From Gammaproteobacteria bacterium (GTDB lineage Bacteria > Pseudomonadota > Gammaproteobacteria > M30B25): a stretch of 64,000 nucleotides of DNA. The position numbers were made by a program, and so were the translations under genes. Under the pieces are notes generated by a model, which worked only from the letters and a program-made list of their open reading frames with translations, ran no database searches and had not been told where the DNA came from. Positions within the stretch are counted from its first letter, which is position 1. Every line of letters begins with the position of its first letter. Shown in pieces: positions 34,892 through 62,178 of this stretch. The DNA is taken from NCBI GenBank assembly GCA_018402195.1, contig JAGYIW010000002.1, forward strand, positions 14,082 through 78,081. The letters run 5' to 3'.

Positions 34892-34930
34892 GATGCTGTG
34901 GGTGAGCTTGTTTTTGCAGCCTCCGGGCAT

Positions 34931-35015
34931 AGGCTAGTAGCTCAATCTGGGTGGTGATGCAGCGGATCTCAAAACCGCAGGTTGGGGGTCTGAGTCCCCT
35001 CCTCCTAGCCTGCCA
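34931..35015 (+). pseudogene. tRNA-Trp-like sequence, internally disrupted (anticodon loop reads CTCAAAA)
   Basis: AGGCTAG/CTAGCCT acceptor and CCA tail pair perfectly, but the D and T regions are expanded (85 nt) and the CCA anticodon is not intact. Confidence 0.5.
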
Positions 35016-35032
35016 CAACTCACAGCCAGGAA

Positions 35033-35404
35033 ATGAGTACCAAGCAGATCACAGGTAAAAATGCTGCTGACACCCGGTGGCCCTTTGTGACTGCTTTGTT
35101 GACGTTAGCATTGGTAGCCAATATGTGGTTTACTGATGTTGATGGTATTACGTGCTGCGGTTGGTATTGTTGTTGTACTATTGGCGCGCTTGGTGGCACA
35201 AGCAAAACAATGTCAAGGCAAAGACACTGCAAATGCTCTCAACAAAGACACATGGAGATGCGTAAAGTGGTTTGGCCGACAAGACAAGAAGCTTCCAGAT
35301 GAAATACCATGTTGGTGGCACCACTGTTGTATTAATGTCAGGTGTGTTATGGGGCATTGACACATGACAGTTTGCATGGGCCAATTATGAAATTTGTAGG
35401 GTAA
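35033..35404 (+). pseudogene. secE: preprotein translocase subunit SecE, frameshifted
   Basis: ORF 35033.. contains ..EMRKVVWPTRQEA.. (SecE signature); the downstream TM segment is in another frame. Confidence 0.6.
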
Positions 35405-35407
35405 AAA

Positions 35408-36007
35408 GTGCAAACACGGTCGTGGTAAGGTCACCGAACTCTGCCTATAATATCCATTTTGTATCCTTTCAAAGGAAAACGTGTGGTAAAAGACTCCGGT
35501 ATAGTCCTACCTGCATTGCATAATCCTGGGTGACTAAATTTTGGTGAAATCTTGGTTCCTTCGGAGACTGTGATGGAGATCAAAAAGGTGGCACTAAGAA
35601 AAGCATTGAGCGTAAAATTTTTCCTGGCTATGTGTTGTTGCAGATGCACTGACTGACGAAACTCAGTATGGTTAGGGAAGCACACCTTAATGTTATGGGA
35701 TTTATTATGGCAATTTCAATGACGTCCAACTCCCTATTTCAAATAAAGAGGTTTGTATTTCAAACGAGGCTATATTGATACGTGTTGAAGAGGGTGTCAG
35801 CAAGCCTAGGGCCCCAAACATTATTCGAGGTTGGTGAGGTTGTGCGTGTTGTAGGGTGGCCCATTTGCCGACTTGGACGGAGCGTTTCATGAAGATATCA
35901 CTCGATGACAAGAGTCGGCTACGGGTGGCTGTAAAAATGATCATCCCTGGACGATCTACTCCGCAGGTTGAACTAGAATTTGGCGAAGTAGGAAAAATAG
36001 CTAGTAA
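35408..36007 (+). pseudogene. nusG: transcription termination/antitermination factor NusG, multiply frameshifted
   Basis: Fragments ..VPSETVMEIKK....KFF(P)GY.., ..GEVVRVV.GP.. and ..GRSTPQVELEFGEV.K. scattered over three frames in the canonical secE-nusG-rplK position. Confidence 0.65.
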
Positions 36008-36056
36008 AACAACAGTGGGAGCCGGAAGGCGTTTGAACCCATAGAGGAAAAGTCAA

Positions 36057-36505
36057 GTGGCAACTAAAAAATCGTCAACTACGTGAAGCTGCAGATTTCT
36101 GCAGGTTCTGCCAATCCTGCACCGCCGGTTGGCCCAGCACTGGGGCAGCACGGCTTGAACATTGTGGGGTTTTGTAAAGAATTTAACGAAAAAACCAAAG
36201 ATTTGGAGAAAGGCCTGCCAGTACCAACGGTCATTACCGTATATTCTGATAAAAGCTTTACTTTTATACTGAAAACACCACCAGCATCTGTGTTGCTACT
36301 AAAGGCTGCTGGAATCAAAAAAGGCAGTGGTGTTCCTCATAAAGAGAAAGTAGGTCAAGTGACGCGTGCTCAGTTGGAAGAAATAGCCGCCACTAAGATG
36401 CCTGATTTGTCAGCCAATGATATGGATGCAGCTGTCTTAATTATTGCAGGTACAGCGAGAAGTATGGGGATTGAAACTAATTTAGGTGATGGGGGTGCTG
36501 CATGA
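36057..36505 (+). CDS. rplK: 50S ribosomal protein L11 (uL11); frameshift in codon 5 at an A6 run, or start at GTG 36083
   Basis: ORF 36083-36505 = ..[23 protein letters not shown]... With one extra A at 36066-36071, GTG 36057 (GAGGA upstream) gives [17 protein letters not shown]. Confidence 0.85.
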
Positions 36506-37194
36506 CTATAAGTAAAAGAAAAGGGGTCATGCGCGAGCAAGTAGACATCAATCGCACTTACCCTATCGAAGAAGCAGTGGCATTGCTTAAGTCAATGTCG
36601 TCAGTAAAATTTGATGAAACCATTGAGTTTGTTGTACGCTTAGGCATTGATGCAAAAAAATCAGACCAAGTAGTGCGTGGCGCAACAGTACTGCCTCATG
36701 GTACAGGTAAAACGGTTAGAGTCGCAGTGTTTGCACAAGGTGATTTGGCTGAGGAAGCCAGCAAAGAAGGTGCTGACATTGTTGGATTTGATGATTTGGC
36801 AGATAAAGTTAAGAAAGGCGAGTTGAACTTCGATGTTGTTATTGCTGCACCTGATGCCATGCGCGTTGTTGGTCAGTTAGGACAAATCTTAGGCCCTAAA
36901 GGGCTGATGCCCAACCCGAAAGTGGGTACTGTGACAAAAGACATTGGCATTGCTGTGAAAAATGCCAAGTCTGGGCAGGTACAATATCGTGTAGATAAAG
37001 CTGGTCATATCCACGCTGGTGTGGGTAAAGTTAGTTTTGAAGTTGATGCATTGGTAGCTAATATAAAAGCATTGGTTGAAGATCTCAAGCGCTTGCGCCC
37101 AAGTGCGGCCAAGGGGATTTACCTGCGCAAAATGTCTGTCTCTTCAAGCATGGGGATTGGTCTTGTGGTAGATATATCTTCAGTAGAGGGGTAA
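36502..37194 (+). CDS. rplA: 50S ribosomal protein L1 (uL1)
   Basis: 230-aa intact ORF, ATGA overlap with rplK; ..[25 protein letters not shown].. Confidence 0.9.
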
Positions 37195-37349
37195 GAGGCA
37201 ATCAGTTCGCAGTAGTGTTGGTTTTTAACCTGCACACTGTCGAAGACCGTGGGTGCCTGGCATATGTGAGGCTTAATTTTCCCGCGCAGATGGTGGTAGT
37301 GTTTGGAAGCACTGCTGAATATTAATGGTGTGATGAGAGGAGTAAATTC

Positions 37350-37877
37350 ATGGCACTAAAATTAGAGCAAAAGAAGGCAGTTGTCGCAGAAGTCAAAGCA
37401 ATGGCTTCCGAGGCCGTGTCCGCTGTTGTCGCAGATTACCGTGGTTTAACCATGTCTGCGTTAACAGAATTGCGCTGTAAAGCACGAGATGTCAACGTCA
37501 AAGTGCGTGTGGTTCGTAATACGCTCGCTAAACGTGCAATCCAAGAGACAGGCTTTGCTTGTTTGGATTCTGTCCTTAGTGGTCCGGTTATCTTGTTGTT
37601 CGCTATGGATCATCCTGGCGCTGCAGCCCGATTGGCCAAAGAATTTACGAAAAAGCACAATAAATTAGATGTAACAGCCTTGGCTTTTGAGGGCAATTTG
37701 ATGTCAGCAGATCAGCTGGCTATGCTCGCAAGTTTGCCAACATACGAAGAGGGTATCAGTTTGCTTATGGCAATGATGATGGCGCCTTTGACGCAAACTG
37801 CGCGTTGCATGTCTGAGACAGTGGGCAAATTGGTGCGTGTTACAGATGCTGTAGCGAAACAGCAAGACGCTGCTTAA
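37350..37877 (+). CDS. rplJ: 50S ribosomal protein L10 (uL10)
   Basis: 175-aa intact ORF, MALKLEQKKAVVAEV..; 155-nt leader upstream (possible L10 autoregulatory leader, not verified). Confidence 0.9.
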   Translation: MALKLEQKKAVVAEVKAMASEAVSAVVADYRGLTMSALTELRCKARDVNVKVRVVRNTLAKRAIQETGFACLDSVLSGPVILLFAMDHPGAAARLAKEFTKKHNKLDVTALAFEGNLMSADQLAMLASLPTYEEGISLLMAMMMAPLTQTARCMSETVGKLVRVTDAVAKQQDAA

Positions 37878-37907
37878 TTTAATGAATAAATCGTTGGAGA
37901 ATGAACA

Positions 37908-38296
37908 ATGAGTGAACTATCTAAAGAAGTACAATCAATGCTTGATGGCATAAAAAAGTTAACTGTGGTACAAGTGGTTGAGCTTGTGAAGGCAATGGAA
38001 GATGAATTTAGCGTTTCTGCCGCAGCCATGGCTGCGCCAGCTGCTGCTCCTGTCGGCGGTGCTGGTGGCGAAGCTGCTGAAGAAAAACTGAATTCGACGT
38101 TGTAATGACTAGTTTTGGCCCTAACAAAGTTGCAGTTATTAAGGTAGTTAGGGTGATAACGTCTCTTGGCTTGAAAGAAGCCAAGGACTTGGTTGAGTCT
38201 GCACCCTCATCTGTTAAAGAAGGTGTCTCTAAAGACGAAGCAGAAGACATTAAGAAACAGCTCGTAGAAGCTGGTGCTGAAGTGGAAGTGAAGTAA
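37908..38296 (+). pseudogene. rplL: 50S ribosomal protein L7/L12 (bL12), single frameshift at an A5 run (38083-38087)
   Basis: ORFs 37908-38105 and 38105-38296. One extra A gives ..[42 protein letters not shown].. Confidence 0.85.
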
Positions 38297-38317
38297 CTCC
38301 CTGAAGCATTTTCGAAG

Positions 38318-38350
38318 CCTGTGGTGCTCGCTAATGGGCGTCACAGGTTT
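38318..38350 (+). terminator. candidate rplL-rpoB attenuator hairpin
   Basis: CCTGTGGTGC..GCGTCACAGG imperfect hairpin followed by TTT; sits where E. coli has a partial terminator. Confidence 0.35.
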
Positions 38351-38399
38351 CTGTGGTTACAGGCTGTAAAGTGATCAATGTGATATCAAGAGGGCGCGT

Positions 38400-41300
38400 A
38401 TGACGCAAAATGTTTCCAACAAAAAGAGAGCTGGTGAAGCAAAGTTGGGTTTCACCGAGTCAAAACGGATAAGAAAAACCTTCAATGGTTCGACTGATGG
38501 CACATATGAGGCCTTTGACGTTCCTCATTTGTTGTCTATTCAGTCTGATTCATACAAGCGTTTCTTACAAGCCGATGTTACCGCTAGTGAGCGGGAAAGT
38601 GTTGGTCTGCATGCTGCGTTCCAGTCTGTATTTCCCATTGAAAGTTATTCAGGCTACCAAAAGCTAGAGTACGTAAGGTATAGGCTTGGTAAGCCTATCT
38701 TTGATAAAGCACAATGTATCAATCGCGATAGCACATTTTCAGCGCCCATCCGTGTTGACATGCGCTTGGTTATTTATGATAGAGAAGGCGATCAGGGCGA
38801 CCAAAAAGTTGTCAAAGATATCCGTGAGCAAGAAGTATTCCTGGGTGAAATTCCTTTGATGACCGAGACGGGCAGTTTTGTTATCAATGGTACTGAGCGA
38901 GTGATTGTATCGCAATTACACCGTTCGCCAGGAGTGTTTTTCGAACATGACAAGGGTAAAACACACTCTTCGGGTCGCTTATTGTATGCCGCCAAAATTA
39001 TCCCGTACAGGGGCTCTTGGCTGGATTTTGAAATGGACCCCAAAGATTGCGTCTATGTCCGTATTGATCGCCGACGTAAGATTCCTGCCACGGTGTTGCT
39101 CAAAGCTTTGGGTTATACCATGGATGAAATTCTATCCATGTTCTATGAAGTGAACATGTACCATATCGATCCTAAAAACCCAGACATTGTTGTGGCTGAC
39201 ATTGTCCCTGAGCGTTTAAAAGGGGAAACATCTGTTGTCGAAATCACTGATACATCAGGGAAAGTGATTGTCAAGCCAGGTGATCGTATTTATCCACGTC
39301 ACATTGCTGCGATGAAACAAGCTAAGTTGACTCAACTGACCCTGCCATGTGATGCATTGATCGGCAAAATACTTGCTAAGGCGCTGATTGACAAGGAAAC
39401 TGGTGAAGAACTATTGCCTGCCAATACCGAAATCACTGAAGAGACGTTAGCTGTGCTGTTGTCATCTAGCTACTTGGAGATTCCTACCTTGTATGTCAAT
39501 GATATCGACAAAGGTAGCTACGTTGCTAGTACACTTCGCATTGACTCCACGACTAGTCGTGAAGAGGCTTTGGTTGAAATTTACCGAATGATGCGTCCAG
39601 GTGAGCCACCAACACGTGAAGCAGCAGAAAACCTTTTCGAAGGCTTATTCTTCTCGCAGGAGCGCTACAATCTATCTGAAGTAGGTCGTATGAAATTTAA
39701 CCGTCGTCTGGGTCGTGAGCAGTTAGACGGTGAAGGGGTTTTGTCCAAAGAAGACATTGTTGATGTGCTGAAGCTGTTACTGGAAATACGTGATGGTCGA
39801 GGTGACATTGATGATATTGATCACTTGGGTAACCGCCGTGTGCGATGCGTGGGCGAGATGGTTGAAAACCAATTCCGCATAGGTTTATTGCGTGTAGAAC
39901 GTGCTGTACGTGATCGATTGAGTGCTGCTGAAACTGATAACCTTAGCCCACAAGACTTGATCAATGCGAAGCCTGTATCTGCTGCAATCAAAGAGTTTTT
40001 TGGTTCTAGTCAGTTGTCGCAATTCATGGATCAAAACAACCCATTGTCAGAGGTAACACACAAACGTCGTGTGTCAGCCCTAGGTCCAGGCGGTTTGACG
40101 CGTGATCGAGCGGGATTTGAGGTGCGTGATGTACACTTCACCCACTATGGTCGTGTTTGTCCAATTGAAACGCCTGAAGGCCCAAACATTGGTTTGATCA
40201 ATTCATTGGCTATGTATGCGCGTTTGAACAGATATGGCTTACTAGAAACCCCTTATCGTCATGTGGTAGACGGTAAGCTGCAAGATGAATGCGAGTACTT
40301 ATCTGCCATTGAAGAGGGCAATTTCTACATTGCCCAGGCCAATACGGAAGTGAACAAAGAAGGTAAAATTGTTCACGATATGGCTGCTTGCCGCTATCGT
40401 GGTGAAACGATGATTACATCTGTAAACAAAGTTCAATTCATCGATGTGTCTCCAAGACAAATTGTTTCGGTTGCGGCTGCGTTAATTCCTTTCCTTGAGC
40501 ACGATGATGCTAACCGTGCCTTGATGGGTTCAAACATGCAACGCCAAGCTGTACCAAGTGTTCGTGCTGAAAAACCTCTTGTTGGTACGGGGATAGAACG
40601 TAAAGTTGCCAAGGATTCTGGGGTAACAGTGGTTGCTAAACGTAGTGGTACCGTCGATTCTGTCGATGCTTCACGTATTGTGATTCGTGCTGACGAATCT
40701 GAAGTGGGTGAGGGCGATTCTGGTGTTGATATTTACCGCTTGGTAAAATTCTCTCGTTCTAACCACACCACATGTATTAATCAGCGTCCTATCGTTCAGG
40801 TTAACGATAAAGTTTCTTCTGGCGATGTTTTGGCAGATGGCCCTTCAACAGACTTGGGTGAATTGGCTCTTGGACAAAACCTCATGGTCGCATTCATGCC
40901 GTGGCATGGTTACAACTTTGAGGATTCCATCCTGATTTCTGAACGGGTAGTTTCTGACGACCGCTTTACCAGCATTCATATCCAAGAGTTGGTGTGTATT
41001 GCTAGGGATACTAAGCTTGGGCCAGAAGAAATCACGGCTGATATCCCTAACATTGGTGAGTCAGCCCTATCTAAGCTAGATGAAAGTGGTGTCGTCTACG
41101 TGGGCGCAGAGGTTGAAGCTGGTGATATTTTGGTGGGTAAAGTAACACCTAAGAATGAAGCACAGCTTTCACCCGAGGAAAAGCTTTTGCACGCTATTTT
41201 TGGTGAGAAAGCCGCAGATGTTAAAGACACTTCAACGCGCGTGCCTTCAAGCACGGTAGGTACAGTCATTGGTGTGCAAGTCTTTACCCGTGAAGGTGTA

Positions 41301-42551
41301 CAGAAAGATGATCGTGCGCAAGAAATTGAAAAAGCCATGCTTGACACGGTGAAGAAAGACATCGATGACGAATGGCGTGTCCAGCAAGGGTCATTGTTTG
41401 GCCGTATTGCCAAGTTACTGATAGGTTGTGAATTGGCCAAAGGTATCAAAACTATTAAGGCTGGTGTTAAACTCACGGCTGACCATTTAGAAAAAATTGA
41501 GCGTGAAAAATGGACTTCTGTGGCATTGAAAGATGACAAAAAGAGCCGATCATTAGAAAAACTGGCTGAACAATTGATACAATTGCGCAAAGATCGTGAC
41601 TCTAAGTTCCAGCTTGAGTCAATGAAGATTACCCAAGGTGATGATTTGTCGCCAGGTGTCATCAAAGTGGTGAAAGTCAGCTTGGCGGTTAAACGTCGGG
41701 TACAGCCTGGTGATAAAATGGCTGGTCGACACGGAAACAAGGGGGTATGCTCCATGATTATTCCTGTGGAAGACATGCCTTATCTTGCTGATGGTACTCC
41801 TGTGGACATTGTGTTGAACCCACTAGGTGTGCCTTCACGTATGAACATCGGTCAGGTATTGGAAACCCACCTTGGTTGGGCAGCCAAAGGCATGGGCAAG
41901 AAGATCGGCAATTTGTTAGATAGACGTCCTTCTGCCAAAGAACTGCGTGACATGGTAACTGAAGTTTACAAAGTAGGTGGCGGCGATCCTGTCGACATCT
42001 CCAGCCTGAATGACAAGTCTGTGAAAACATTAGCAGAAAACCTCCGGGGCGGTGTGCCTATCGCAACACCTGTGTTCAGTGGTGTTTCTGAAAAGCAAAT
42101 CAAAGCCCTGTTACAATACGCTGATTTGCCTGAGTCAGGACAAGTCCAATTATATGACGGCCGCACAGGCGAGAAGTTTGACCGCCTGGTGACAGTAGGT
42201 TACATGTACATGTTCAAGCTTAATCACTTGGCGGATGACAAGATGCATGCGCGTTCTACCGGTTCTTATAGTTTGGTAACCCAGCAACCACTGGGTGGTA
42301 AAGCCCAAGGTGGTGGTCAGCGATTTGGTGAGATGGAGGTCTGGGCATTAGAAGCCTATGGTGCCGCCTATACCTTACAAGAAATGCTCACAATTAAGTC
42401 AGATGATGTCAACGGACGTACCAAAATGTACAAAAATATCATTGATGGCAATTTAGAAATGGATCCAGCAACGCCTGAATCATTTAACGTGTTGGTGAAA
42501 GAGATTCGTTCCTTGGGTATTAACATGATTTTTGAATATGAAGATCAATAA
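38400..42551 (+). CDS. rpoB: DNA-directed RNA polymerase subunit beta
   Basis: 1383-aa intact ORF with full-length beta-subunit signatures (..[28 protein letters not shown].., ..NMQRQAVP.., ..[12 protein letters not shown]..). Confidence 0.95.
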
Positions 42552-42608
42552 TCCTAAGTTATTTGTAAATAGTGAAAGGTTATTTAACGCATTGAAAGGG
42601 GAACGCTG

Positions 42609-45600
42609 TTGGCTAGTATCGTATCACATCTAAACCAGAAGAATGCTGACTTTATCAGCTCAGTCCAGGTCCGTATTGCTTCGCCTGAAGATATCTTGGC
42701 TGAATCGTATGGTGAAGTCACAACACCAGAAACAATTAACTATCGGACTGGGAAGCCCGAGCGTAAGGGGTTGATGGATGGTCAAATTTTTGGTCCAACC
42801 AAAGATCACGAGTGTATGTGTGGGAAATACAAACGCTTGAAGCACCGAGGGGTGATTTGTGAGAAGTGTGGTGTTGAAGTCACCTTGTCTAAAGTGCGTC
42901 GAGAGCGTATGGGGCATATTGCGTTGGCCTCACCTGTGGCGCATATATGGTATTTGCGCTCATTACCCTCACGTATTGGCTTGATTTTGGATATGACCCT
43001 CAGAGACATTGAGCGGGTGCTATATTTTGAAGCCTATCTTGTGGTAGATCCTGGCTTGACTGAGCTTGAAACCGGCCAATTGCTGACCGAAGAAGGTTAC
43101 CAAGAAGCCATACAGATGTATGGCAATGATTTTGAAGCATTAATGGGAGCAGAAGGGATTCAGAGGCTTCTCAAGCAGCTTGATTTAAAAGAAGAATCTG
43201 CACGACTGCGTGAGGAAATGCCAAGTATTAATTCAGAAACCAAGCTCAAGAAAATTGCTAAGCGACTGAAAATTATTGAATCATTTATTAATTCTGGCAA
43301 CAAGCCAGAATGGATGGTATTGACAGTATTGCCAGTTTTACCACCAGATCTTCGTCCCTTGGTACCTTTGGATGGTGGACGTTTCGCCACCTCTGATTTA
43401 AACGATTTATACCGTCGGGTAATCAATCGTAACAACCGTTTGAAGCGTTTATTGGATCTGCATGCTCCTGATATCATCGTTCGTAACGAAAAACGTATGT
43501 TGCAAGAAGCGGTAGATGCTTTATTAGATAATGGCAGACGTGGTCGAGCTATCACTGGTGCTAATAAGCGCCCACTGAAATCTTTGGCGGACATGCTTAA
43601 AGGTAAGCATGGTCGATTTAGATTGAACTTGCTAGGTAAACGTGTTGATTATTCAGGACGTTCCGTGATTGTGGTTGGTCCTGAGCTTAAACTTCATCAG
43701 TGTGGTCTACCTAAGCGTATGGCTTTAGAGCTGTTTAAGCCTTTTGTGTTCTCAAGGCTGCAGGCCAGCGATCCTAGCATTACTGTGAAAGCTGCCAAGA
43801 AGATGGTAGAAAGTGAAGTAGGTGAGGTTTGGGATGTTTTAGAAGAAGTTATTCGTGAGCATCCTGTCCTGCTTAACCGTGCACCTACCTTGCACCGTTT
43901 GGGGATCCAAGCATTTGAGCCTATGCTAATCGAAGGTAAAGCCATTCAGCTCCACCCTTTGGTTTGTACTGCTTATAACGCTGACTTTGATGGTGACACC
44001 ATGTCTGTGCATGTGCCATTGACGTTAGAGGCACAAATTGAAGCTAGAACTTTAATGATGTCGTCTAATAACATATTGCATCCTGCCAACGGTGAGCCAG
44101 TGATCAATCCTACTCAGGATGTGGTCTTGGGGCTATATTACATGACGCGTGATCGTGTGAATGCCAAAGGTGAGGGCATGATTTTTGCCGATGTGAACGA
44201 AGTACAGCGTGCTTACGGTAACGGTCTGGTTCAGCTGCATGCCAAAGTGAAAGTACGTATCACTGAGCACAGCAAAGATGAAAATGGCGAGTGGAGTGAG
44301 TCAAGAGCTATTCACGACACCACCGTGGGTCGTGCTTTAGCTTGGGAAGTGGTACCAAAAGGTATGGCATTCTCGGAAATCAACATGGTTTTGACTAAGA
44401 AAGCCATTTCAAATCTATTAAAAACTTGTTATCGCCGCTTGGGCTTGAAAGCCACTGTAGTATTTTCAGATCAATTATTGTACACCGGTTTTACCTATGC
44501 CACACGTTCTGGGGTGTCTATCGGCATTGATGATCTGTTGGTTCCTGAAGAGAAGCAAGGCATTTTGGAAGCTGCTGAGAAAGAAGTGCGTGAAATTGAC
44601 AGACAATTCAATTCTGGTTTGGTAACTCAGGATGAGCGTAAGAATAAAGTTGTTGATGTCTGGACTGTAGCGGGTGACAAGGTATCCAAAGTGATGATGG
44701 CAGGAATCTCCAAAGAAATGATTGAGGATGCTGACGGCAATGCTGTCGAGCATGCTTCCTTCAACAGTATCTTCATGATGGCAGATTCTGGCGCAAGGGG
44801 CTCTGCACCGCAGATCCGTCAGCTGTCTGGTATGCGGGGTCTGATGACTCGACCGGACGGAAGTGTTATCGAAACACCAGTAACAGCAAGTTTCCGTGAA
44901 GGTTTGGATATTCTCGAATACTTTATTTCTACGCACGGGGCACGTAAAGGTCTCTCTGATACTGCTTTGAAAACAGCAAACTCCGGTTATTTGACCCGTC
45001 GTTTGGTTGACGTTGCACAAGATGTTGTTGTCTTAGAAGATGACTGCGGAACCGATGAAGGTTTAATCATGACACCTTGTATTGAGGGTGGTGAAATAGT
45101 AGAACCTTTGCGTGATCGGGTACTGGGGCGTATTTTAGCTGCCGATGTTCTCAATCCTGGCAATGGCAGTGTGTTAATTGAATCAGGTGAGTTACTCAAT
45201 GAAGCCATGGTTAAAACCCTTGATGAATATGGTATTGATAGTGTCAAAGTGCGCTCACCAATCACCTGCAAGACTGATCATGGTATTTGTGTCAGTTGTT
45301 ACGGTCGTGATTTAGCCCGTGGCACACAAATCAACCAGGGCGAAGCTGTCGGTGTGATTGCGGCACAGTCTATTGGTGAACCTGGTACTCAGTTGACAAT
45401 GCGTACTTTCCACGTCGGTGGTGCTGCGTCTTTGGCAGTAACAGCTAATAAGATTGAAGTATGTAACAATGGTGTTGTGCGCCTAAAGACCGTGAAGACG
45501 GTTGAGCGCAAATCTGGTCATTTGGTCGCTGTATCTCGATCAGGCGTGCTAGCAATTCAAGATGAGCAAGGCCGTGAACTAGAGCGTTATAAGCTTCCTT

Positions 45601-46795
45601 ATGGCGCTGTTATTGCTATCAAAGATGGTGGCAAAGTGAAAGCGGGTGATATTGTCGCGGAATGGGATCCTCACACACATCCAATCATCACTGAGGTTGG
45701 CGGTGTCTTGCGTTTGCTTAATATCGAAGAGGGCATTAATGCTACCAAGCAAACTGATGATTTAACTGGTCTTTCAAATATTGTCATTACGACTGGCAAA
45801 CACCGTGACATGGATGAGGCACGACCTATGGTTAAGCTAACCGATGCCAAGGGGGAAGATTTAATGATCAGTGGTACCAAGGTACCTGCGCATTATTATT
45901 TGCCTGTGGGTGCAATCATTCAGTTAAAAGATGGTGACAAAGTAGGTACTGGTGAGGTTATTGCTCGTATACCACAAGAGACTTCAAAGTCTCGTGATAT
46001 TGCTGGTGGTTTGCCGCGGGTTGCTGATTTGTTTGAAGCCAGACGTCCTAAGGATGCGGCTATCTTGGCAGAATTATCTGGGGTAATTAGCTTTGGCTGA
46101 AACCAAAGAGAAGAAACGCCTTGTGATTACAGCACTGATGGTGAAACCTATGAGGTAGTAATTCGAAATGGCGTCGTTGGTGTGTTTGAAGGTGAGCAAA
46201 TCGAACGTGGTGAAATTGTGGCTGAAGGGTCCTAGCGATCCACATGATATTGTCCGTTTGTGGGGTCAATGCTTGGCCGAGTATATTGTCAATGAGATCC
46301 AAGAGGTTTACCGCTTGCAAGGTGTAAAAATCAATGACAAGCATATTGGAAGTCATATAAGACAGATGCTGCGAAAAGTGGTTATCAATCCTGTGACACC
46401 GCGCTAATCATTGGCGAGCAGGTGGGAGCAAGGACGTTTAATGAGACTAATGCAGCATTGAAGAAGGCAAAGTACCAGCACGCTGTGAACCACTTTGTTG
46501 GGGATTACAAAGCCTCATTGGCGACAGAGTCATTCTTGTCTGCAGCGTCGTTCCAAGAAACCACGCGTATTGACAGAAGCCTCTGTTGCCGGGGAAAAAG
46601 ACAATCTTCGTGGTCAAAAGAGAACATGATTGTCAGTCGCCATCCCTGCGGAACTGGTTTGGCGAAGCGTCGTTTAGATGCTAAGCGTAGGGCGGAGGTT
46701 TGGCTCGGGAAGCCATAGGTGTAACACCAGAATCTGCTGAGCAAGCACTTTCAAGCCCTGCAGGATAGCAGTGCTGATGCAAAAATAATTTTTAG
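42609..46795 (+). pseudogene. rpoC: DNA-directed RNA polymerase subunit beta': intact for 1163 codons, the last about 230 codons frame-scrambled
   Basis: TTG start with AGGGG SD; NADFDGD at about 43980. The ORF stops at 46100 (..ISFG*), yet the C-terminus (..ETKEKKRLVI.., ..[12 protein letters not shown].., ..[13 protein letters not shown].., ..ASLATESF.SAASFQETTR..) continues in shifting frames. Confidence 0.9.
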
Positions 46796-46926
46796 ATAGT
46801 TTGGCTTGCCCCTTGCACCGCGTTGCGGCAACGGGGCTCTCCCAAAGGTATAAATCCCCAGGTTAAACCATTTTGCTTGGTTTGTCCTAGGCAATATTGA
46901 ATTAAAGGCGATTCTTGACGAGAAAA

Positions 46927-46965
46927 GCCCACACAGAAACCCTGCACTTTGTGTGTGGGCTCTTA
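46927..46965 (+). terminator. candidate terminator after rpoC
   Basis: GCCCACACA-15 nt-TGTGTGGGC hairpin then TCTTAATATT; lies inside the low-fidelity block, so the T-tract may be corrupted. Confidence 0.35.
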
Positions 46966-47059
46966 ATATTGGTCTCAGTGCCTAATCCTGAGACTAGAGA
47001 AATTGAACAGACAGGTTATGTCGATTGGTGAAAAGACGCTTAAAATAGCGATTTTGCGC

Positions 47060-47089
47060 TTGACAAGAGATGGTGTGTGCTTTTAGAAT
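47060..47089 (+). promoter_or_regulatory. candidate sigma70 promoter of the str operon
   Basis: TTGACA-18 nt-TAGAAT about 60 nt upstream of the rpsL ATG. Confidence 0.3.
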
Positions 47090-47149
47090 CGCGCGTTCAA
47101 TTTAAATTTCCAAATGTTTTCACCGCGTCGGTTGAGCAACAATTTAGTT

Positions 47150-47527
47150 ATGGCTAGAATAAATCAATTATGCAGGAAGCCACGGAAACGAAGTTAAGAA
47201 GACATCGTCACCAGCGTTGAGTCGCTGTCCCACAACGTCGTGGTGTATGTGTGCGAGTCTACACAACAACCCCTCGTAAGCCCTAACTCTGCGTTACGTA
47301 AAGAAGCTAGGGTCTTGTGACAAACAGGTATGGAAGTCCCTGTTTACATTGGTGGTGAAGGCCACAACTTGCAAGAACATTCCATTGTGCTTGTGCGTGG
47401 TGGCAAAAAGATTTTGCCAGGCGTGCGTTACCATGTGGTCCGTGGCGCTCTAGATACTTCAGGGTTGGCAAGACGTCAGACGACGTTCCAAATATATGAA
47501 AGAAGCCAAAGAAAAATAAGAAGCTAA
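47150..47527 (+). pseudogene. rpsL: 30S ribosomal protein S12 (uS12), frameshifted
   Basis: ATGGCTAGAATAAATCAATTA..; ORF 47330-47527 carries ..[38 protein letters not shown].. while the N-terminal half is in other frames; span 378 bp. Confidence 0.8.
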
Positions 47528-47534
47528 GGTTTGC

Positions 47535-48080
47535 CATGAGAAGAAGGCGCGCTGGCACTATATTGCCCTGACCCTTTGCTTAAAAGTGAACTGGTTGCCA
47601 AGTTCTATCAATTGCATCATGATGGATGGAAAAATCTGTAGCAGAGAGCATTGTGTATGATGCAGATGAATTGTAAAGCGTCAAGGTCCCTAAGGGTATT
47701 GGAAAAATTGATGGTGAAGAAGACGCAGGTAAGAAGGCGGCAAAGGTGGTTCTATAGTCGCACCAACGACCGGGCGCGTCGTCGCTTTGGGGCTTTCGAA
47801 GACCATTGAGGCAGTCAAACCCTCAGTTGAAGTAAAGTCCGCCGCGTGGGTGGTTTCTAACTACCAAGTGCCGGTGGAAGTTCGTCCCAAGCGCCGTTTG
47901 GCTTTGCCATGCGTTAGCTCAAGACTGTTGCCGTGGCAAGATCCCCTGAGAAGTCCATGTCCAAACGTTTAGCTAACGAGTGCTAGATGTGCTTGGCAGG
48001 GCGAGGGAATACTAAAGAAGCGTAATGATACGCATCAAATGGCTAAGGCAAATCAGGCATTTGCCCATTACATGTGGGGC
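47535..48080 (+). pseudogene. rpsG: 30S ribosomal protein S7 (uS7), frameshifted
   Basis: MRRRRAG.., ..SVAESIVYDA.., ..VEVKS..GGSNYQVPVEVRPKRR.ALA.., ..[10 protein letters not shown] in different frames. Confidence 0.75.
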
Positions 48081-48090
48081 GAAGGCACAA

Positions 48091-50188
48091 GTGAGACAAC
48101 ATATCGAGTTGTACCGTAATATTGGTATTATGGCGCACATCGACGCCGGTAAAACAACAACGACAGAGCGCATTCTTTTATACGGAAATCCTACAAAATT
48201 GGTGAAGTGCATGATGGTGCTGCCACCATGGACTGGATGGAACAAGAGCAAGAGCGTGGTATTACGATACAATCAGCTGCAACAACTTGCTTCTGGTCTG
48301 GTATGGATAACCAATACAAGGCGCATCGCATTAACATTATTGATACGCCTGGCCACGTTGGACATTTCCATTGAAGTTGAGCGATCGCTCAAAGTCTTGG
48401 ATGAAGTGCATGTGCTGTATTTTGTGCTGTGGGTGGTGTCGAGCCTCAGTCTGAGACTGTATGGCGTCAGGCTACTAAATACAATGTGTACCTCGCATGG
48501 GCTGTCCAGATGGACCGTGCTGGTGCCATTTGCGTGTGGTCGAGCAAGCGTTTGCGATTGGGTTTTCTAATCCAGTGGCCATGCAGCTGCCAATTGGCGC
48601 TAAAGATTCTTTCGAGGGCGTGGTTGACTTGGTATTGATGAAGGCTATTCACTGGGATGAAGCCTCACAAGGCACTAAATTCGAGTTGAAAGATATCCTC
48701 AGAAAATATGGTCGACAGAATACAGCCGCTACCGCGAGAAATCTTGAAGCTGCGGCGGAATCTTCTGATGAATTAATGGGAAGCTTATTGAAAATGGTGA
48801 CCTTTCTGAAGATCAAATACATGTAAGCTATCATTGCCCGTACATTGGCTAACAGAAGTGGTTTCCTGTATTTTGTGGTTCTGCCTTTAAGAACAAAGGT
48901 GTGCAAGCCATGTTGGATGCAGTTATTGAGTACATGCCTTCACCTGCTGACATTGGATCCTGTGGTTGGTATTGCTGGATGACAAAGATGGATCAGAAAT
49001 CCAGTGCCCACCCTAAAGATGATGAGCCTTTTGCTGCTTTGGCATTCAAGATTTCAACTGACCCATTTTGTGGTACTTTGACTTACTTTCGTGTACTCTG
49101 GGCTATTACAATCCTGGCGATACAGTTTTATAACCCTTTGAAAGGCAAGCGTGAACGCATTGGTCGTTTTGCGCAAATGCACTCTAATTCTCGTGAAGAA
49201 ATCAAAGCAGTATGCGCTTCTTGGTGACATTGCAGCTGTTGTTGGTCTGAAGACAGCTGGGACAGGTGACACCTTTGTGTGACATAAACCGTATATTAAC
49301 GCTGATCCTGGAGTTCCCAGAGCCAGTAATTTCGGTTGCCGTTGAGCCTAAGACCCAAAGCTGACCAAGAGAAAATGGGTACAGCTTTGGAAATTGGCTC
49401 AGGAAGACCCCTTCTTTCAGGTACATACTGACGAAGAATCAGGTCAGACAATTATTTCTGGCATGGGTGAACTCCACCTTGGTAATCGTTGATCGAATGT
49501 TGCGTGAATTTAAAGTGCAAGCCAACGTTGGTAAGCCACAGGTCGCTTACCGTGAAACTATCCGAGGGTACTTGCGAGCAAGAGCACAAATTTGTGCGTC
49601 GACAGGTGGGCGCGGTCAATTTGGCCATGTCTATATTCGCATTGAGCCACAGAAGCCGGAGGGCTTTGAATTTGTCAACGAAATTGTTGGTGGTGTGATT
49701 CCAAGAGAATACATTCCGGCTGTTGAGAAGGGTGTGGTTGAACAAATGAAAAATGGTGTGGTTGCCGGATACCCTGTTGTAGATGTTAAAGTTACCTTGT
49801 ACGATGGTTCATTTCATGCTGTAGATTCTAGTGAGATGGCATTCAAGATTGCTGGCTCATTGGCCTTCAAAGAAGGCGCACCTAAAAAGCCAATGCCGTC
49901 CTACTTGAGCCTGTCATGGCTGTTGAAGTTGTGGACACCTGAAGAATACATGGGTGACATTGTTGGTGACCTGAACCGTCGTCGTGGTGTCATTTTAGGT
50001 ATGGATGAAATCTGTTGGTAAAATCATCAAGGCTGAAGTACCCTTTTTTTTTGGCTGAGATGTTTGGTTACTCTACAGATCTGCGTTCATCTTCGCAGGG
50101 ACGTGCATGTTATACAATGGAATTCTTAAAATACAACGAGCTACCTAAGAATATTGCTGATGGTATTGCTGAAACTAGAAAATCTTAA
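48091..50188 (+). pseudogene. fusA: elongation factor G, many frameshifts
   Basis: ..[22 protein letters not shown].., ..[23 protein letters not shown].., ..[11 protein letters not shown].. and ..[14 protein letters not shown].. readable across all three frames; about 10 ORF fragments; span 2098 bp, about the size of an intact fusA. Confidence 0.9.
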
Positions 50189-50202
50189 CTAAGGAGTTGA
50201 GC

Positions 50203-51394
50203 ATGGCAAAGAAATTTGAGCGAAATAAACCGCATATCAATGTAGGTACAATTGGTCACGTAGACCATGGTAAGACGACGCTAACAGCAGCGATAGCGAC
50301 AGTAATGTCGAAAGAGTATGGTGGTGAAGCTCAAAACTATGCGGATATAGATAAAGCGCCAGAAGAGAAAGCGCGAGGCATCACGATTTCAACGGCACAC
50401 GTTGAGGTATGAAAGTGGTGCGCGACACTACGCGCCACGTAGACTGTCCTGGTCACGCCCAGGATTATGTAAAGAACATGATCACGGGTGCAGCGCGAGA
50501 TGGATGGAGCGATACTGGTTGTATCAGCGGCGGATGGTCCAATGCCACAGACAAGAGAGCATATATTGTTGGCAAGGCAGGTAGGGTGCCATCGATGGTG
50601 GTATTTTGAACAAAGCAGACATGGTAGATGATGCAGAGCTATTAGAGCTGGTAGAAATGGAAGTAAAGAGAGCTGTTGAGCGAGTACTACTTTCCAGGTG
50701 ACGAAGTACCAATCATCAAGGGATCCAGCTTTGAAAGGATTGGCAGGTGAAAAGCAGTGACATAGGTGAGCAAGCGATCAAAGATTTGGTGTTGGCGATG
50801 GATGAGTACTTTGAGATACCAGAGCGTCCAGTAGACAAGGACTTTTTGATGCCGATTGAAGACGTATTTTCTATCGGTCGTGGTACAGTAGTGACAGGGC
50901 GAATCGAGCGGGGTAAAAGGTAGCTAGGGGATTGGATAGAAGATTGTAGGTATCAGAGGTACTCAAAAACAACATGTACGGGTGTAGAGATGTTTCGCAA
51001 GTTGCTGGACGAAGGTTTTGCGGGAGACAACGTAGGTGTATTGTTAAGGGGTACGAAGCGAGAAGAAGTAGAGCGAGGCCAAGTATTGGCAAAGCCAGGC
51101 ACGATCAAGCCACACACGAAGTTCAAAGCGGAAGTGTACGTATTGACCAAAGATGAAGGTGGGCGTCATAAGCCATTCTTCGGAGGATACAAGCCACAGT
51201 TCTACTTCAGGACGACAGACGTAACGGGAGAGATCAAGTTACCGACGGATGTAGAGATGGTGATGCCAGGAGACAATGTGACAGTAGAAGTAGAGTTAAT
51301 TGTTCCAATTGCGATGGAGCAAGGGGTAAGTTTCTCTATTCGCGAAGGTGGCCGCACAGTAGGTGCTGGTGTCGTAACTGAAATTACTGAGTAA
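50203..51394 (+). pseudogene. tuf: elongation factor Tu: 5' two-thirds frameshifted, last 134 codons intact
   Basis: [30 protein letters not shown].. stops at 50412. [17 protein letters not shown].. and later segments shift frame until about 50970; 50990-51394 is clean (..[20 protein letters not shown]..). Span 1192 bp. Confidence 0.9.
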
Positions 51395-57224: not shown

Positions 57225-57769
57225 TGGCAACGTTAGCAGTACAGTACAAAAAAAAGATCGTCCCTGAGTTACAGAAGGCTTTTGGTTTTTCCAGCGTGAT
57301 GCGCGTGCCAAAACTTGAAAAAATTGTGCTCAATATGGGGGTTGGTGAAGCCATTAATGATAAAAAACATATTATTAATGCGGTTCATGATTTGGGTTTG
57401 TTGGCAGGCCAGAAGCCAGTGGTGACTTTGGCTCGCAAATCTGTGGCGGGCTTTAAAGTTCGCGAAGGTTGGCCTCTTGGATGTAAGTAACTGCGCGGTG
57501 AACGCATGTATGAGTTTCTTGACGTTTGGTAGTTATTGCTATTCCTCGTATCCGTGACTGGAGGTTTTAGCCCCAAAGAGTTTGACGGTGATTTCAACTA
57601 CAATTTCCCATTACATTAAAAGAACAAATCGTTTCCTAGGTTGGATTATGATAAAAGTTGATTCAAGTTCGTGGGTTAAACATCACATTTGTAACTACGA
57701 AGACCCATGAAGAGGGCGTGGCTTTGTTAAAAGCTTTGGGTTTTCCTTTGAAGAGAAAAGAAGGCATAG
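57224..57769 (+). pseudogene. rplE: 50S ribosomal protein L5 (uL5): first 88 codons intact, remainder frameshifted
   Basis: ORF stops at 57490 (..REGWPLGCK*); ..LRGERMYEFLD.., ..IPRIRD.., ..FDG.. and ..GLNITFVTT..EEGVALLKALGFP.. continue in other frames. Confidence 0.85.
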
Positions 57770-57772
57770 GGT

Positions 57773-58078
57773 ATGGCAAAGGAAATGTATGGTAGCGCGC
57801 GAGCGTAAGCGCGTAGAAAGCAGCCAAAAGTGGTGCTGAGTGCAGAGACAAGCTAAAGGCGTTAATAAAAGACGTTAGCGCTGATTTTGACACCAAGCTC
57901 AAAGCTATCTTAGATTTAAGTCGTCGCAAACGTGATGAAAGTGAAGTGTCGTCTGCGGCATCGTTGTATGTGCTGCGGACGTCCTCATGCAGTTTATCGT
58001 AAATTTAGACTTTGCCGTATGTGTTTACGTCAGGCGGTGATGAGGTTGGTTGCCTGGGGTTGCAAGTCTAGCTAGTAA
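57773..58078 (+). pseudogene. rpsN: 30S ribosomal protein S14 (uS14), frameshifted
   Basis: ATGGCAAAGGAAA..; fragments ..REKRVE.., ..[21 protein letters not shown]..; span 306 bp, the size of an intact rpsN. Confidence 0.7.
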
Positions 58079-58107
58079 GAATAATAAAGAATTGAGGGTA
58101 ACAGACT

Positions 58108-58516
58108 ATGAGTATGCAAGATCAATTTCTGATGCATTGACACGGATTCTGCTTGCCGCCACGCTGTCGGGCACAAATCCGTGAGCATGCATACATCAAA
58201 ATTGCCGCAATATATTGAAAGTAATGCAAGACCAGAAGGCTACATCCGAGACTTTGCTGTACAACTGGTAGAGAGGACTCAGCTACGAAAGATATTGTGG
58301 TGCGTTTGTTTTGATGGTGCACCAGTTATTGAGCACTTCAAAAACATTTGAGTACCTGGTCGTAAGCAGCTACGTCAGGGTGTCTGATTTGCCCAAAGAA
58401 AAAGAAGGTTTGGGTATTGTAATCATGACAACATCGCAAGGTGTAATGACAACTCACCCAGGCTGAAAAGCTTGGACTGGGTGGTGAATTATTGGTGGCT
58501 ATTTACCAACAGTTAA
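58108..58516 (+). pseudogene. rpsH: 30S ribosomal protein S8 (uS8), frameshifted
   Basis: MSMQD.ISDALTRI.. then shifts; ..GLGIVIMTTSQGVMT.. recognisable. Confidence 0.7.
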
Positions 58517-58560
58517 GGTTTAACTATGACACTTAGTACAAAAAGACAATTTGATCTAGC

Positions 58561-59122
58561 ATTTCTAGGGTTGCCAAGCAACCTATCATGATACCTCCAG
58601 GGTAACTGTGGCTGTTGACGGGCAAAATGTAAATTGTCAAAGGACCTAAAGGCAGGGTGACCAGTAGAATTGCATGCCTCAGTCGAAGTCATGCTGCGCA
58701 GTTAGTGGAGAAAAGGTGGTGAGGGACAGTTTGCCCAGTGGTCTAATGTTGCTTACCTACCTCCTCAGTGGCGGATAGTAACATGCGTACCGGTACTGCT
58801 AGAGCACTTGCAACAACTTGGTGACAGGTGTATATAAGGTTTTGAGAAGAGAATTAGTTATGATTGGTGTTGGTTATCATTGCATAAATACCAAGGTAAT
58901 AAACTGGTGTTTACGCCCAGGTAAATCATCCAGATGATTTGTTTTACCAGAAGGTATTTCTGCTGAGTTACCAAGCCAAGCTGAAGTTATTCTCAAGGGT
59001 ATCGACAAACAAGCTGTGGGGCAGGCGCTAAAATCAGAATTTTAGACCACCATTCTGCAAAAATTAAAGAGCACGCTATACCCGATGAACATATAAGATG
59101 GAAAGAAGAGGCTAAGAAGTAA
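58561..59122 (+). pseudogene. rplF: 50S ribosomal protein L6 (uL6), frameshifted, start codon altered
   Basis: ..SRVAKQPI.IPPG.TVAVDGQNV.IVKGPKG.. in shifting frames; ends ..EAKK*. Confidence 0.65.
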
Positions 59123-59477
59123 TGTCAGATAAATTAAAACGACAGAAGAGAGCGCTAAAAACACATTACCAATATTGTAAGGCTCAAGAAGATTAATTGT
59201 CAGTTACAAAAGCAGCCAGCATATTGAGGCGCAGTTGATCGATCCTCAAGGGAAGGTATTGGTATATTTTCCACAAAGAGGTGAAACTTTCAAAAACTTG
59301 GCTTGGCTCTTGGAAGCAATATTCAAGCAGCCTCTAGAAGAAACTGGGGACGTGGTCGCCGATGCAGGATGCAAGCTTGGTTTTTGAAAAGTGGCTTTTG
59401 ATCGTTCTGGATTTCGATTCCACGGACGCATCAAAGCGTTGGCTGATGCTGCGTGAAGGCGGTTTAATTTTGCTTAA
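59122..59477 (+). pseudogene. rplR: 50S ribosomal protein L18 (uL18), frameshifted
   Basis: ATGTCAGATAAATTAAAACGACAGAAGAGAGCG.. (MSDKLKRQKRA..), ..FDRSGFRFHGRIKALADAA.EGGL.F in other frames. Confidence 0.65.
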
Positions 59478-59486
59478 AGGGTGAGC

Positions 59487-59999
59487 ATGGCTGTTCCAGC
59501 AGAAAAACAGCTGGATACCGATGGTATTCTAGAAAGTTAGTGACAGTGCGCCATTGCTGCTCACGTGGCCGAGGCGGACGTGTGTTTGGCTCCGCCTGGT
59601 AGTGGTGGGTGATGGTGAAGGCGCGTCGGCTTTGGTTTTTGCCAAAGCTTCAGAAGTGCCTGTTGCCATTAAGAAGGCCATGCAAAGTGCTAGGCGTAAC
59701 ATGGTGTTGATTCCTTTTTAAATGGAACAACGCTGTATCACCATTAACAGATTTTGCGCTACAGTGCAATGATTCAATGACACTGCTAAGCAGGTACCGG
59801 TGGCATGATTGCCAGAGCAACGCAATGCGTGCCTGTATTCGAAGTCTTAGGTGTTGAAAACGTGTTGTAAAATCTCTTGGGATTTCGACTACCCAATTAA
59901 TGTCGTTAGAGCAACCATTAAAGGTCTGAAGTCCATGACTGCGCCTGACGTTGCATAAACAGGAAAAAATCTCTAAGAAGCAATAGAAGAAGTTATACG
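59487..59999 (+). pseudogene. rpsE: 30S ribosomal protein S5 (uS5), frameshifted
   Basis: Fragments ..RGGRVF.F.A.VVVGDGEG.VGFG..KA.EVPVAIKKAMQSARRNMV.. in shifting frames. Confidence 0.65.
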
Positions 60000-60185
60000 A
60001 TGGCAAAGACGGTTAAAGTGACGTTGAGTAAAGTAAGTTTGGTCATAAGAAACCTGGACACAGAGAAACGTGTAGAAGGTCTTGGTTTGTCGTATACATC
60101 AGAGCAGTTGATGTACTGGATACATGAAAATCAAAGGGCATGATAAATAAAGTTATCTACATACTTAAAGTTGAAGAAGAGCTAA
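60000..60185 (+). pseudogene. rpmD: 50S ribosomal protein L30 (uL30), frameshifted
   Basis: MAKTVKVTL.. then shifts; ..LLKVEE.. at the end. Confidence 0.6.
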
Positions 60186-60188
60186 ACC

Positions 60189-60622
60189 ATGAGTATGCGA
60201 CTAAATACCTCAAGCCTGCAGAAGGCGCAAAGTAAAAGAAAGCAAATTATTGGACGTAGGATCAGTAGTGGTTCTGGTAAGACATGTAAGCGCGGTCATA
60301 AAGGTCAGCGTTCTAGACGTGTTGCACCACATGCATTTATCGGCTTTGGTGGTCAAACGCCATTGCAGAGACGATCTACCTAAATCTGGCTTTAATTCGC
60401 GTAAGCAAAGAACGCTGTGTCATGCTTTGTCTGAATTTGGCTAAGGTAGAAGGCGATATTGCTGACATGGATGATGTTGTGGCGGGTTGGTTCAAACCTT
60501 ACCAAACAATGAAGATAATGTTTAATCAAGGTGAAATTTCACATTAACTGATAGTTAAAGGCACCGATTCGTTTGACCAAAGTGCCAAGAAAGCTGTTGA
60601 AAAAGTAGGTGATAGAAAGTAA
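60189..60622 (+). pseudogene. rplO: 50S ribosomal protein L15 (uL15), frameshifted
   Basis: (MS)MRLNT.....[28 protein letters not shown].. then stop at 60383; the rest is in other frames. Confidence 0.7.
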
Positions 60623-60627
60623 GCAGG

Positions 60628-61897
60628 ATGCGAGGTTGAAGAGAAGCATAAAACTGCATGATTCAACAAGGGTCATCCCAGGTGCTTTCGCAGAGCTAAA
60701 AGAGCCGTTTGCTCTTTTGCTGGCATCTTGATATTTCCTTTAGGGTGCATCCCGTGCCAAGATGATGATGTGCACTGGCAAAACTTTTTGGTGATGGTAG
60801 TCGCTCCCTTGCAGGTCACCAATATGTTTTCAAACGGAACCTTTAAACCTTGTGCAGTTTTTGCTGGGCATAATACCTTATATTTCCCAGCTCATGTTAT
60901 ACAACTGATGTCTGTCACAGTGCACCAGAGATTGGAGCTGCATGAAGAGGAAGGTGATGCAGGAAGGCAATAAAATTACTCAATAATACTCTCAGTACAG
61001 CACATAAGTATTAACAGTTTCAGGCATGGTTTATGAAGTATCTGATAGCAGCACAGGTATTTGTCATTAATCCTGAGTATGGTTTCTTCTGTCCACCACT
61101 CAACCTTCGTTTGTTCTCTTTTGGTAGTTGGGCAGACAAATGACTGAAAGAGGCATTATTAACAGGGTATCTTTAATTATATATAGTATTGACCCTCAAC
61201 TTTCCTGAGGCTATTTCAAGTTTTCTCAGTGCAGGCAGCTTGGTCCTATTTCCTAATTGTCTTGGAATTGCTTTGGTTTTGCTGCAGTAACATATTTTGT
61301 AGTTTATATGGAGCGGGCTGGCAATCATTCCTGTGCACTACGCTAAGCGTCAGCAGGAGCCATAAGCTTTATGCAGCACAAAATAGCCTTTTACTTAAAA
61401 ATCAATATGTCTGGTGTGATTCCTCCCATGCTTTGCTTCAAGTATTATTTTGTTTCCTCAGACTATTTCTAGCTGGTTTGGCCAAAGTGGGGTTGGAATT
61501 GGTTCGTACCTTAAACATACAGTTAGGCCATGGTCAGCCTTTGTATATGATTTTATTTGTATCTGCGTTGGCTTTTCTACCTTTTTCACAGCGTTGGTGT
61601 TTAATTTCAGACTGCTCAAAATCTAAAGAAGTCTGGGACTTTATACCCAGTATACGTCTAGCGAGCAGACGGCAGCATATCGTAAGGTATTATTTGTTGA
61701 CTCTGGTTGGCGCATGTTACTTATCTGCAGTGGCTTTGCTACCAGAGTTTCTAATCATAGGCTGGCACGTGCCATTCTATTTTTTTTAATTGGTACCTCT
61801 TTGTTAATTGCTGGTGGTTGTGTTGATGGATTTGATAGCGCAAATACAAGCGTTACTGCTGTCTGATCAATACGGATCACTGATGAAAGGCTTCTAA
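60628..61897 (+). pseudogene. secY: preprotein translocase subunit SecY, many frameshifts
   Basis: ..FAELK..L.LLAGILIF..G..IPVP.., ..NMFSNG.., ..GQPLYMILFVSALAF.. and ..LLPEFLI... in all three frames; the longest fragment is ORF 61229-61789. Confidence 0.75.
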
Positions 61898-61953
61898 ATT
61901 TGGAAGCCAGGTGCCAATTTGTTAGGTTAAATTAAGCGTAAGGAGTAAGGCAA

Positions 61954-62068
61954 ATGAAAGTAGGTGCGTCAGTGAAGCGCCGGTTGCAAAGATTGTCCAG
62001 ATTTATCAAACGCAAAGGCCGTGTTATAGTTATTTGGCGATACCTACTTCCTGCAGCGCCAAGGTTGA
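61954..62068 (+). pseudogene. rpmJ: 50S ribosomal protein L36 (bL36), frameshifted
   Basis: ATGAAAGTAGGTGCGTCAGTGAAGCGC.. (MKV.ASVKR), AAGGAG SD; ends ..RQG*; span 115 bp, not a multiple of 3. Confidence 0.6.
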
Positions 62069-62178
62069 TACGTTGATTAAAGCGGCAATTTGGCAAGTAA
62101 AAGATTGATTTTTGCCCAGAGCGTTAAAATGTCGCGCTCTGGTTTAAATCAAGATCACAAGAGTTAGGAGAATATTGA

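Follow-up and report, generated by a model that had tools for sequence, protein, structure and literature searches.

Frameshifts from rpoC to tuf in a gammaproteobacterial contig point to uncorrected sequencing or assembly noise

Introduction

Are genes that are essential for transcription and translation really broken in a bacterium when a public assembly presents them in pieces, or is it the sequence that is at fault? The question is raised by a stretch of 64,000 nucleotides (nt) of contig JAGYIW010000002.1 (assembly GCA_018402195.1, Gammaproteobacteria bacterium; positions 14,082 to 78,081, forward strand), which is referred to here as the window. In a segment of the window that we call Block B, the 3' end of rpoC, the str operon genes rpsL, rpsG and fusA, and the first part of tuf are scrambled among the three reading frames. 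An earlier reading of the letters alone, made by a model (the original prediction), had taken this for an artefact rather than a set of pseudogenes. Our analysis arrives at the same answer, i.e., that Block B would be uncorrected sequencing or assembly noise, rich in insertions and deletions (indels), that stands in the public record and does not represent a biological feature; judged from the sequence, we put the probability of this at about 0.93. At this locus, the rpoC, rpsL, rpsG, fusA and tuf of the organism itself are almost certainly normal genes.

The reading frame is lost within rpoC and regained within tuf

In the list of open reading frames (ORFs), rpoB is an intact ORF (38400-42551, 1383 aa), and the rpoC frame is open from 42609 until it meets a stop at 46100, after 1163 aa (..GVISFG, then the stop). 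Beyond this stop and up to 50990 the list holds short ORFs only, in + frames that keep shifting. A tblastn search with the proteins of relatives found the rpoC 3' end, rpsL, rpsG, fusA and tuf in canonical order, each split over three frames, and, taken together with frameshift-aware alignment, placed all five genes on the + strand downstream of rpoBC with the content and order of the str operon. The S10 operon that follows tuf is entirely intact. In its order and spacing the locus matches Escherichia coli and the nearest relatives, as a gammaproteobacterial rpoBC-str-S10-spc-alpha array in which another tuf lies ahead of secE-nusG; it departs from the canonical array only in the sequence quality of its parts and in nothing biological.

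Frameshifts were counted with a purpose-written frameshift-aware protein-to-DNA aligner. The references were first the proteins of two relatives, L004 and L001, and then those of L081, a TARA Oceans scaffold that is the nearest relative whose operon is intact: it has an RpoC of 78% identity and intact rpoB, rpoC, rpsL, rpsG and fusA, while tuf was referenced to L001. Codons 1-1167 of rpoC contain no frameshift, and the last 245 codons contain 14; for all 14 to fall within its final 17% has a chance of 2e-11. The first error of Block B is at 46098, where a single t stands in place of a Lys codon, and the last is an A-run in tuf that is one base short, at about 50964-50969; the frameshift-aware alignment shows no frameshift in tuf after 50964. 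At the rate seen in the block, finding zero frameshifts in the following 6.5 kb has a chance of e^-102. The error rate rises from 0 to 15.6 per kb and returns to 0, and both steps lie inside genes (rpoC and tuf) and not at gene boundaries. Consistent with this, a hidden Markov model (HMM) of codon usage by frame switches frame every 50-500 nt within Block B, whereas in the flanks it switches only at gene boundaries. The features are collected in Table 1.

Table 1. Coordinates of Block B, its genes, and the other noisy and clean elements of the window
Feature	Coordinates	Strand	Basis or remark
Block B, noisy stretch, 76 detectable frameshifts, 15.6 per kb	46098-50970	+	Frameshift-aware alignments; codon-usage frame HMM
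rpoC clean part, codons 1-1163	42609-46097	+	Single ORF; 78% identical to L081 RpoC, 0 frameshifts
rpoC 3' end, ~245 codons, 14 frameshifts (13 deletions)	46098-46803	+	71.8% identical to L081 once corrected
rpsL (S12), 5 frameshifts and 1 in-frame stop	47150-47519	+	85% identical to L081 S12 once corrected
rpsG (S7), ~12 frameshifts, stop codon lost	47536-48080	+	76-78% identical to L081 S7 once corrected
fusA (elongation factor G, EF-G), ~35 frameshifts; start uncertain by ~10 nt (48079/48090)	48079-50188	+	83% identical to L081 EF-G once corrected
tuf noisy first 770 nt, 10 frameshifts, codons 1-254	50203-50970	+	Alignment to L001 and sequence
tuf clean last 424 nt	50971-51394	+	ORF 50990-51394 (last 134 codons), 0 frameshifts
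Noisy ORF-poor block: two damaged insertion sequence (IS) copies and tRNA-Ser	2929-7137		HMM, repeat comparison
Clean reference IS3-family element, ~1.22 kb; orfA 12202-12489, orfB 12483-13322	12121-13343	+	
Noisy block: full IS3-family copy (17782-19003) and other transposase fragments	16735-19012		HMM, repeat comparison
Block A, much noisier: damaged tRNA-Tyr-like gene, intact tRNA-Gly, tufB (33620-34894), secE, nusG	32222-36067	+	
Block C: mid-rplE through rpsN, rpsH, rplF, rplR, rpsE, rpmD, rplO, secY, rpmJ, rpsM	57487-62600 (end approximate)	+	

As a control, the same aligner was applied to ~14 kb of flanking genes (rpoB, rpoC codons 1-1167, rplK, rplA, rplJ, and rplD to rplX), in which it found no internal frameshift. 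It also gave single events at the termini of genes, five in all and including one where rpoB ends, and these are read as alignment-end effects. The comparison of indel rates that had been suggested earlier sets 15.6 per kb in the block against no internal frameshift in the flanks except in rplL. This gene (37908-38296), in the otherwise clean block 36068-46097, is split into ORFs 37908-38105 and 38105-38296; the split looks like the result of one missing A in the A-run around 38078-38082 (GAAGAAAAACTG), a lone homopolymer error.

These results bear out much of what the original prediction had described. The ORF list, tblastn and the step from 0 to 14 frameshifts agree with a rpoC that is clean for 1163 codons and then stops, its C-terminus continuing in shifting frames, and the counts in Table 1 with the claim that rpsL, rpsG, fusA and the first ~770 nt of tuf are frame-scrambled. 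The last error is indeed a change in an A-run near 50,966, with the rest of tuf and the S10 operon clean, and the gene spans are near wild type, at 1192 nt for the whole of tuf (50203-51394), with rpsL and fusA alike in this. The figure of about 10 ORF fragments in fusA is right as a count of the longer ORF pieces, and falls short as a count of the damage, which amounts to ~35 frameshifts.

The position of the two steps bears on whether these could be true pseudogenes, i.e., either a dead str duplicate with an intact copy elsewhere or the genes of a degenerate symbiont. A dead gene should decay over its full length; rpoC, tuf and, at the edge of Block C, rplE each combine a perfect part with a scrambled one. 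Block B moreover sits within the one canonical rpoBC-str-S10 array, its register continuous with that of the clean genes, and if the noisy blocks of the window were decayed, then the dead genes would also include secE, nusG, secY and ten for ribosomal proteins. The idea does draw on the many frameshifts and few in-frame stops that these essential genes carry, on a lineage so poorly sampled (nearest RpoC 78-80%) that an unusual lifestyle is conceivable, and on the fact that one contig of the genome was examined. Weighed with the error profile and the database searches described below, we consider true pseudogene decay very improbable.

The damage consists of small indels with very little extra substitution

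Block B contains 76 events in 4873 nt, at a fairly even density of 5-14 per 500 nt. By type they are 32 of +1, 6 of +2, 18 of -1 and 20 of -2, so that 38 insertion events (44 nt) stand against 38 deletion events (58 nt). The largest single event is at most ~9 nt, and no large deletions were found in the block. The earlier statement that insertions and deletions roughly cancel is thus correct over the whole block (44 nt in, 58 nt out), but it does not hold locally: the rpoC 3' end is deletion-biased, with 13 deletions and 1 insertion and a net change of ~-29 nt against L081, and the middle of fusA is insertion-biased.

The extent of substitution was assessed by a relative-rate test. In the clean genes, the outgroup L004 is 1.5 points nearer to the window than to L081. 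In the frame-corrected genes of the block, L004 is 1.6-5.4 points further from the window than from L081, and part of this gap of 1.6-5.4 points is misalignment beside frameshifts. The block therefore combines 76 frameshifts with very little extra substitution, and its damage is dominated by indels. The fragments had been said to keep a high amino-acid similarity, and this agrees with their near-normal amino-acid divergence after frame correction, which exceeds the expected value by only 2-5 identity points.

When bacterial genes decay neutrally, substitutions outnumber indels several-fold, deletions prevail over insertions and larger deletions occur. The near-zero excess of substitution, together with the lack of an overall deletion bias and of large deletions, speaks against decay of this kind in Block B. 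A process of another sort, very recent and strongly indel-biased, might be imagined to have struck 2-5 kb tracts of one genome copy in a polyploid or multi-lineage symbiont, with intact copies elsewhere supplying the proteins and the assembly having caught the damaged copy; the frameshifts would then be real, in a reciprocal degeneration like that of Hodgkinia. We find this barely credible.

Relatives have intact genes and no accurate copy is on record

In each of the relatives L081, L004 and L001, rpsL-rpsG-fusA are intact and keep this order. The tuf gene is also intact in L004 and L001, and the L081 scaffold stops inside fusA. The nearest RpoC proteins among 5.8 billion sequences are 80% (JGI metagenome) and 78% (TARA Oceans scaffold) identical, and among species-representative genomes the best match to the C-terminal part of RpoC reached 65% identity. 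The source organism is a poorly sampled gammaproteobacterium.

The truncated RpoC of 1163 aa is present in a public protein collection, as P0001; the scramble is thus part of the deposited record and not a corruption introduced by the analysis, and the proteins of this assembly are indexed in that collection. When the same collection, which covers the predicted proteins of indexed contigs only, was searched with the frame-corrected EF-G, the best match was the EF-G of L081, at 81%. Since the collection indexes this assembly, no intact second fusA is on record. This is also the outcome of the check for a duplicate locus that the original prediction had proposed: nothing above 81% identity appeared, and a functional fusA copy of the kind that pseudogenes would need was not found any closer than this. 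An accurate copy of the sequence of Block B itself was found neither in the window nor in the public collections.

The intact genes of the relatives also bear on a reading in which the frameshifts are real and are decoded, by programmed ribosomal frameshifting or by transcriptional slippage. Recoding is known in bacteria, with prfB, dnaX and the IS3 transposases as examples, and slippage on poly(A) tracts rescues some endosymbiont genes; the clean IS copy in this window itself has the usual orfA/orfB overlap. Block B, however, would require 76 sites in 4.9 kb, in contexts without a shared slippery motif or a long A-tract, with shifts of 1 or 2 nt in both directions. None of these sites occurs in the relatives, whose ORFs run uninterrupted, and there are none in the adjacent 14 kb. 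The uninterrupted genes of the relatives and the motif-less, bidirectional shifts exclude recoding for all practical purposes.

Block B is one of five noisy blocks, some of which can be measured against clean copies

The HMM, and tblastn and alignment with proteins of E. coli K-12, reveal five noisy blocks, Block B included, which together occupy ~20 kb of the 64 kb window. The noisy blocks are 2-5 kb long and alternate with error-free stretches of 6.5-13 kb. In Block C, secY carries 28 frameshifts in 1.27 kb, and the genes downstream of that block, rpsK (from 62694) and rpsD, are clean.

Three of the five noisy blocks hold repeats that have one clean copy, and where a clean copy permits measurement the noise ranges by block from ~7% to 29%. 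Relative to the clean IS3-family element, the copy at 17782-19003 has 93.1% identity; it departs from that element by 24 mismatches, by 18 insertion events that add 31 nt and by 20 deletion events that remove 32 nt. Two further copies are 82% (5925-6999, reversed) and 89% (3748-4307) identical. The frameshift-aware aligner, applied to the 93% copy, returned 25 frameshifts per kb, which is of the same order as in Block B; extrapolated from this calibration, the nucleotide error of Block B would be roughly 3-4%. An alignment of tufB with the clean 3' end of tuf, 483 columns long, gives 71% identity and contains 54 mismatches, 59 extra nt and 26 missing nt; tufB has perfect runs of 20-100 nt between garbled patches.

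The original prediction had proposed counting the fraction of indels in homopolymers, and the expected concentration there did not appear: frameshift sites show no homopolymer enrichment, with a run of at least 4 within 7 nt in 14% of events and in 14% of the background. Long homopolymers are nonetheless depleted in the noisy blocks, which contain 16 runs of at least 6 where 35 were expected from clean sequence, i.e., about half as many (P = 3e-4). In fusA, a T2 has become a T9 through an insertion of seven T at 50044-50052, and the same odd insertion is present in the noisy IS copy, as a T11 at 18696-18706. The paired insertions, each beside a short T-run, may stem from the sequencing chemistry or from the base-caller. 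These T9 and T11 are the longest T-runs of the window, both in noisy blocks, and the T9 is equalled only by a clean A9 run at 29806.

The same measurements help to decide whether the artefact could be of a different type, namely low-depth homopolymer error of 454 or Ion Torrent sequencing, or a metagenome consensus collapsed over strains or species. Homopolymer changes do occur, at the A-run at 50965, in rplL at ~38080, and, in the noisy IS copy, as A7 to A5 and A6 to A4; most indels, however, lie outside homopolymers, and of the 20 deletions in that copy only 7 are in runs of at least 3. Differences of 17-29% in other blocks are far beyond 454 or Ion Torrent error. As for a collapsed consensus, metagenome assemblies often tangle at very conserved genes, and Blocks B and C do span such genes. 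Strain mixing, though, would yield substitutions and chimeras and not balanced indels of 1-2 nt, and the IS copies are not conserved housekeeping genes. An artefact of this different type keeps a small chance of being the right explanation.

Gap filling with unpolished long-read sequence as a probable origin

Taken together, the gene-independent boundaries, the small and balanced indels, the near-normal divergence and the intact relatives favour an artefact over pseudogenes, as had been proposed originally. The sequence of events that most probably produced it would start from short-read contigs of 6-13 kb, broken at repeats (the IS copies and the pair of tuf genes) and also elsewhere. These contigs would have been joined, and the gaps of 2-5 kb filled with long-read sequence that lacked a final polish. 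Block B would then be noisy long-read sequence, from a single raw read or the consensus of very few, that was left uncorrected by accurate reads, whereas its flanks would derive from accurate data. In an equivalent variant, the starting point would be a long-read draft in which short-read polishing was possible only in places. Both the presence of one clean IS copy beside several noisy copies and that of one clean tuf 3' end together with a noisy tufB fit the filling of gaps at collapsed repeats, and the differing noise levels among the blocks fit a different read support for each gap.

That frameshift pseudogenes can arise from long-read errors is documented in the literature (PMC12007338). 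Block B resembles the long-read-error pseudogenes of hybrid or gap-filled assemblies in its dense small indels, in the retention of fragment similarity and gene length, and in noise dominated by indels. In the noisy blocks of the window taken together, long homopolymers are depleted and several A-runs contracted, and the other blocks have noisy repeats beside one clean copy. It differs from them in that the blocks of this window are sharply bounded at 2-5 kb, have a noise level specific to each block, and have indels that are mostly outside homopolymers. The likeness to gene decay of the Mycobacterium leprae or Sodalis type is confined to genes that are frameshifted and interrupted by stops yet remain recognisable. 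Unlike in those genomes, essential translation and transcription genes are hit here, the damage is bounded by coordinates and not by genes, and there is no deletion bias, no large deletion and hardly any excess substitution.

Several points weigh against uncorrected long-read noise as the explanation. The indels are not enriched in homopolymers, unlike the consensus error typical of polished nanopore or of 454/Ion Torrent data. The repeat-gap account leaves most of Block B (from the rpoC 3' end to fusA) and all of Block C unexplained, as these are single-copy; low or uneven short-read coverage, or graph tangles at conserved genes in a metagenome, would be a possible reason why such stretches lacked accurate data. 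At 29%, the difference seen in tufB would be large for raw long reads too, and some of it could be real divergence between the tuf copies. Finally, the case for an artefact is drawn from the letters of the sequence alone.

Consequences for the use of this assembly

Block B is of no biological significance in itself, and its value is that of a quality warning: about a third of the 64-kb window is unreliable in the public record, in a poorly sampled gammaproteobacterial lineage of marine type. This assembly would mislead gene calls, pseudogene counts, completeness estimates and inferences of IS decay. Phylogenies built on marker genes would likewise be misled where they use rpsL, rpsG, fusA, tuf, the spc-operon proteins or secY. 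Features in the other noisy blocks of Table 1 warrant equal caution.

Minor features of Block B and of the other noisy blocks

Within Block B, ~60 nt upstream of rpsL, a near-consensus sigma-70-like promoter, TTGACA-17-TAGAAT, can be read on the + strand at ~47063-47095. It is likely to be the str promoter, its coordinates being approximate. The spacer between rpoC and rpsL is ~350 nt long, against ~110 nt in L081.

In Block A, the tRNA-Gly(UCC) gene at 33392-33462 is perfect (73 bits). The tRNA-Tyr-like gene, which has a long variable arm, lies 22 nt upstream of it (33280-33369) and scores 21 bits, and ARAGORN makes no call there. The usual Thr-Tyr-Gly-Thr cluster before tufB is otherwise undetectable.

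The two ORF-poor blocks in the first third of the window might have been taken for ordinary non-coding DNA, and this was rejected, as both hold damaged copies of the clean IS element. The orfA and orfB of that element overlap in the way expected for programmed -1 frameshifting. At 16953-17728 and 18950-19198, on the - strand, lie pieces of two other transposases, a second IS3-like one (rve_3, rve, HTH_21) and an IS1595-like one. The IS1595-like fragment adjoins the end of the IS3 copy, which may reflect the insertion of this IS into another transposase gene.

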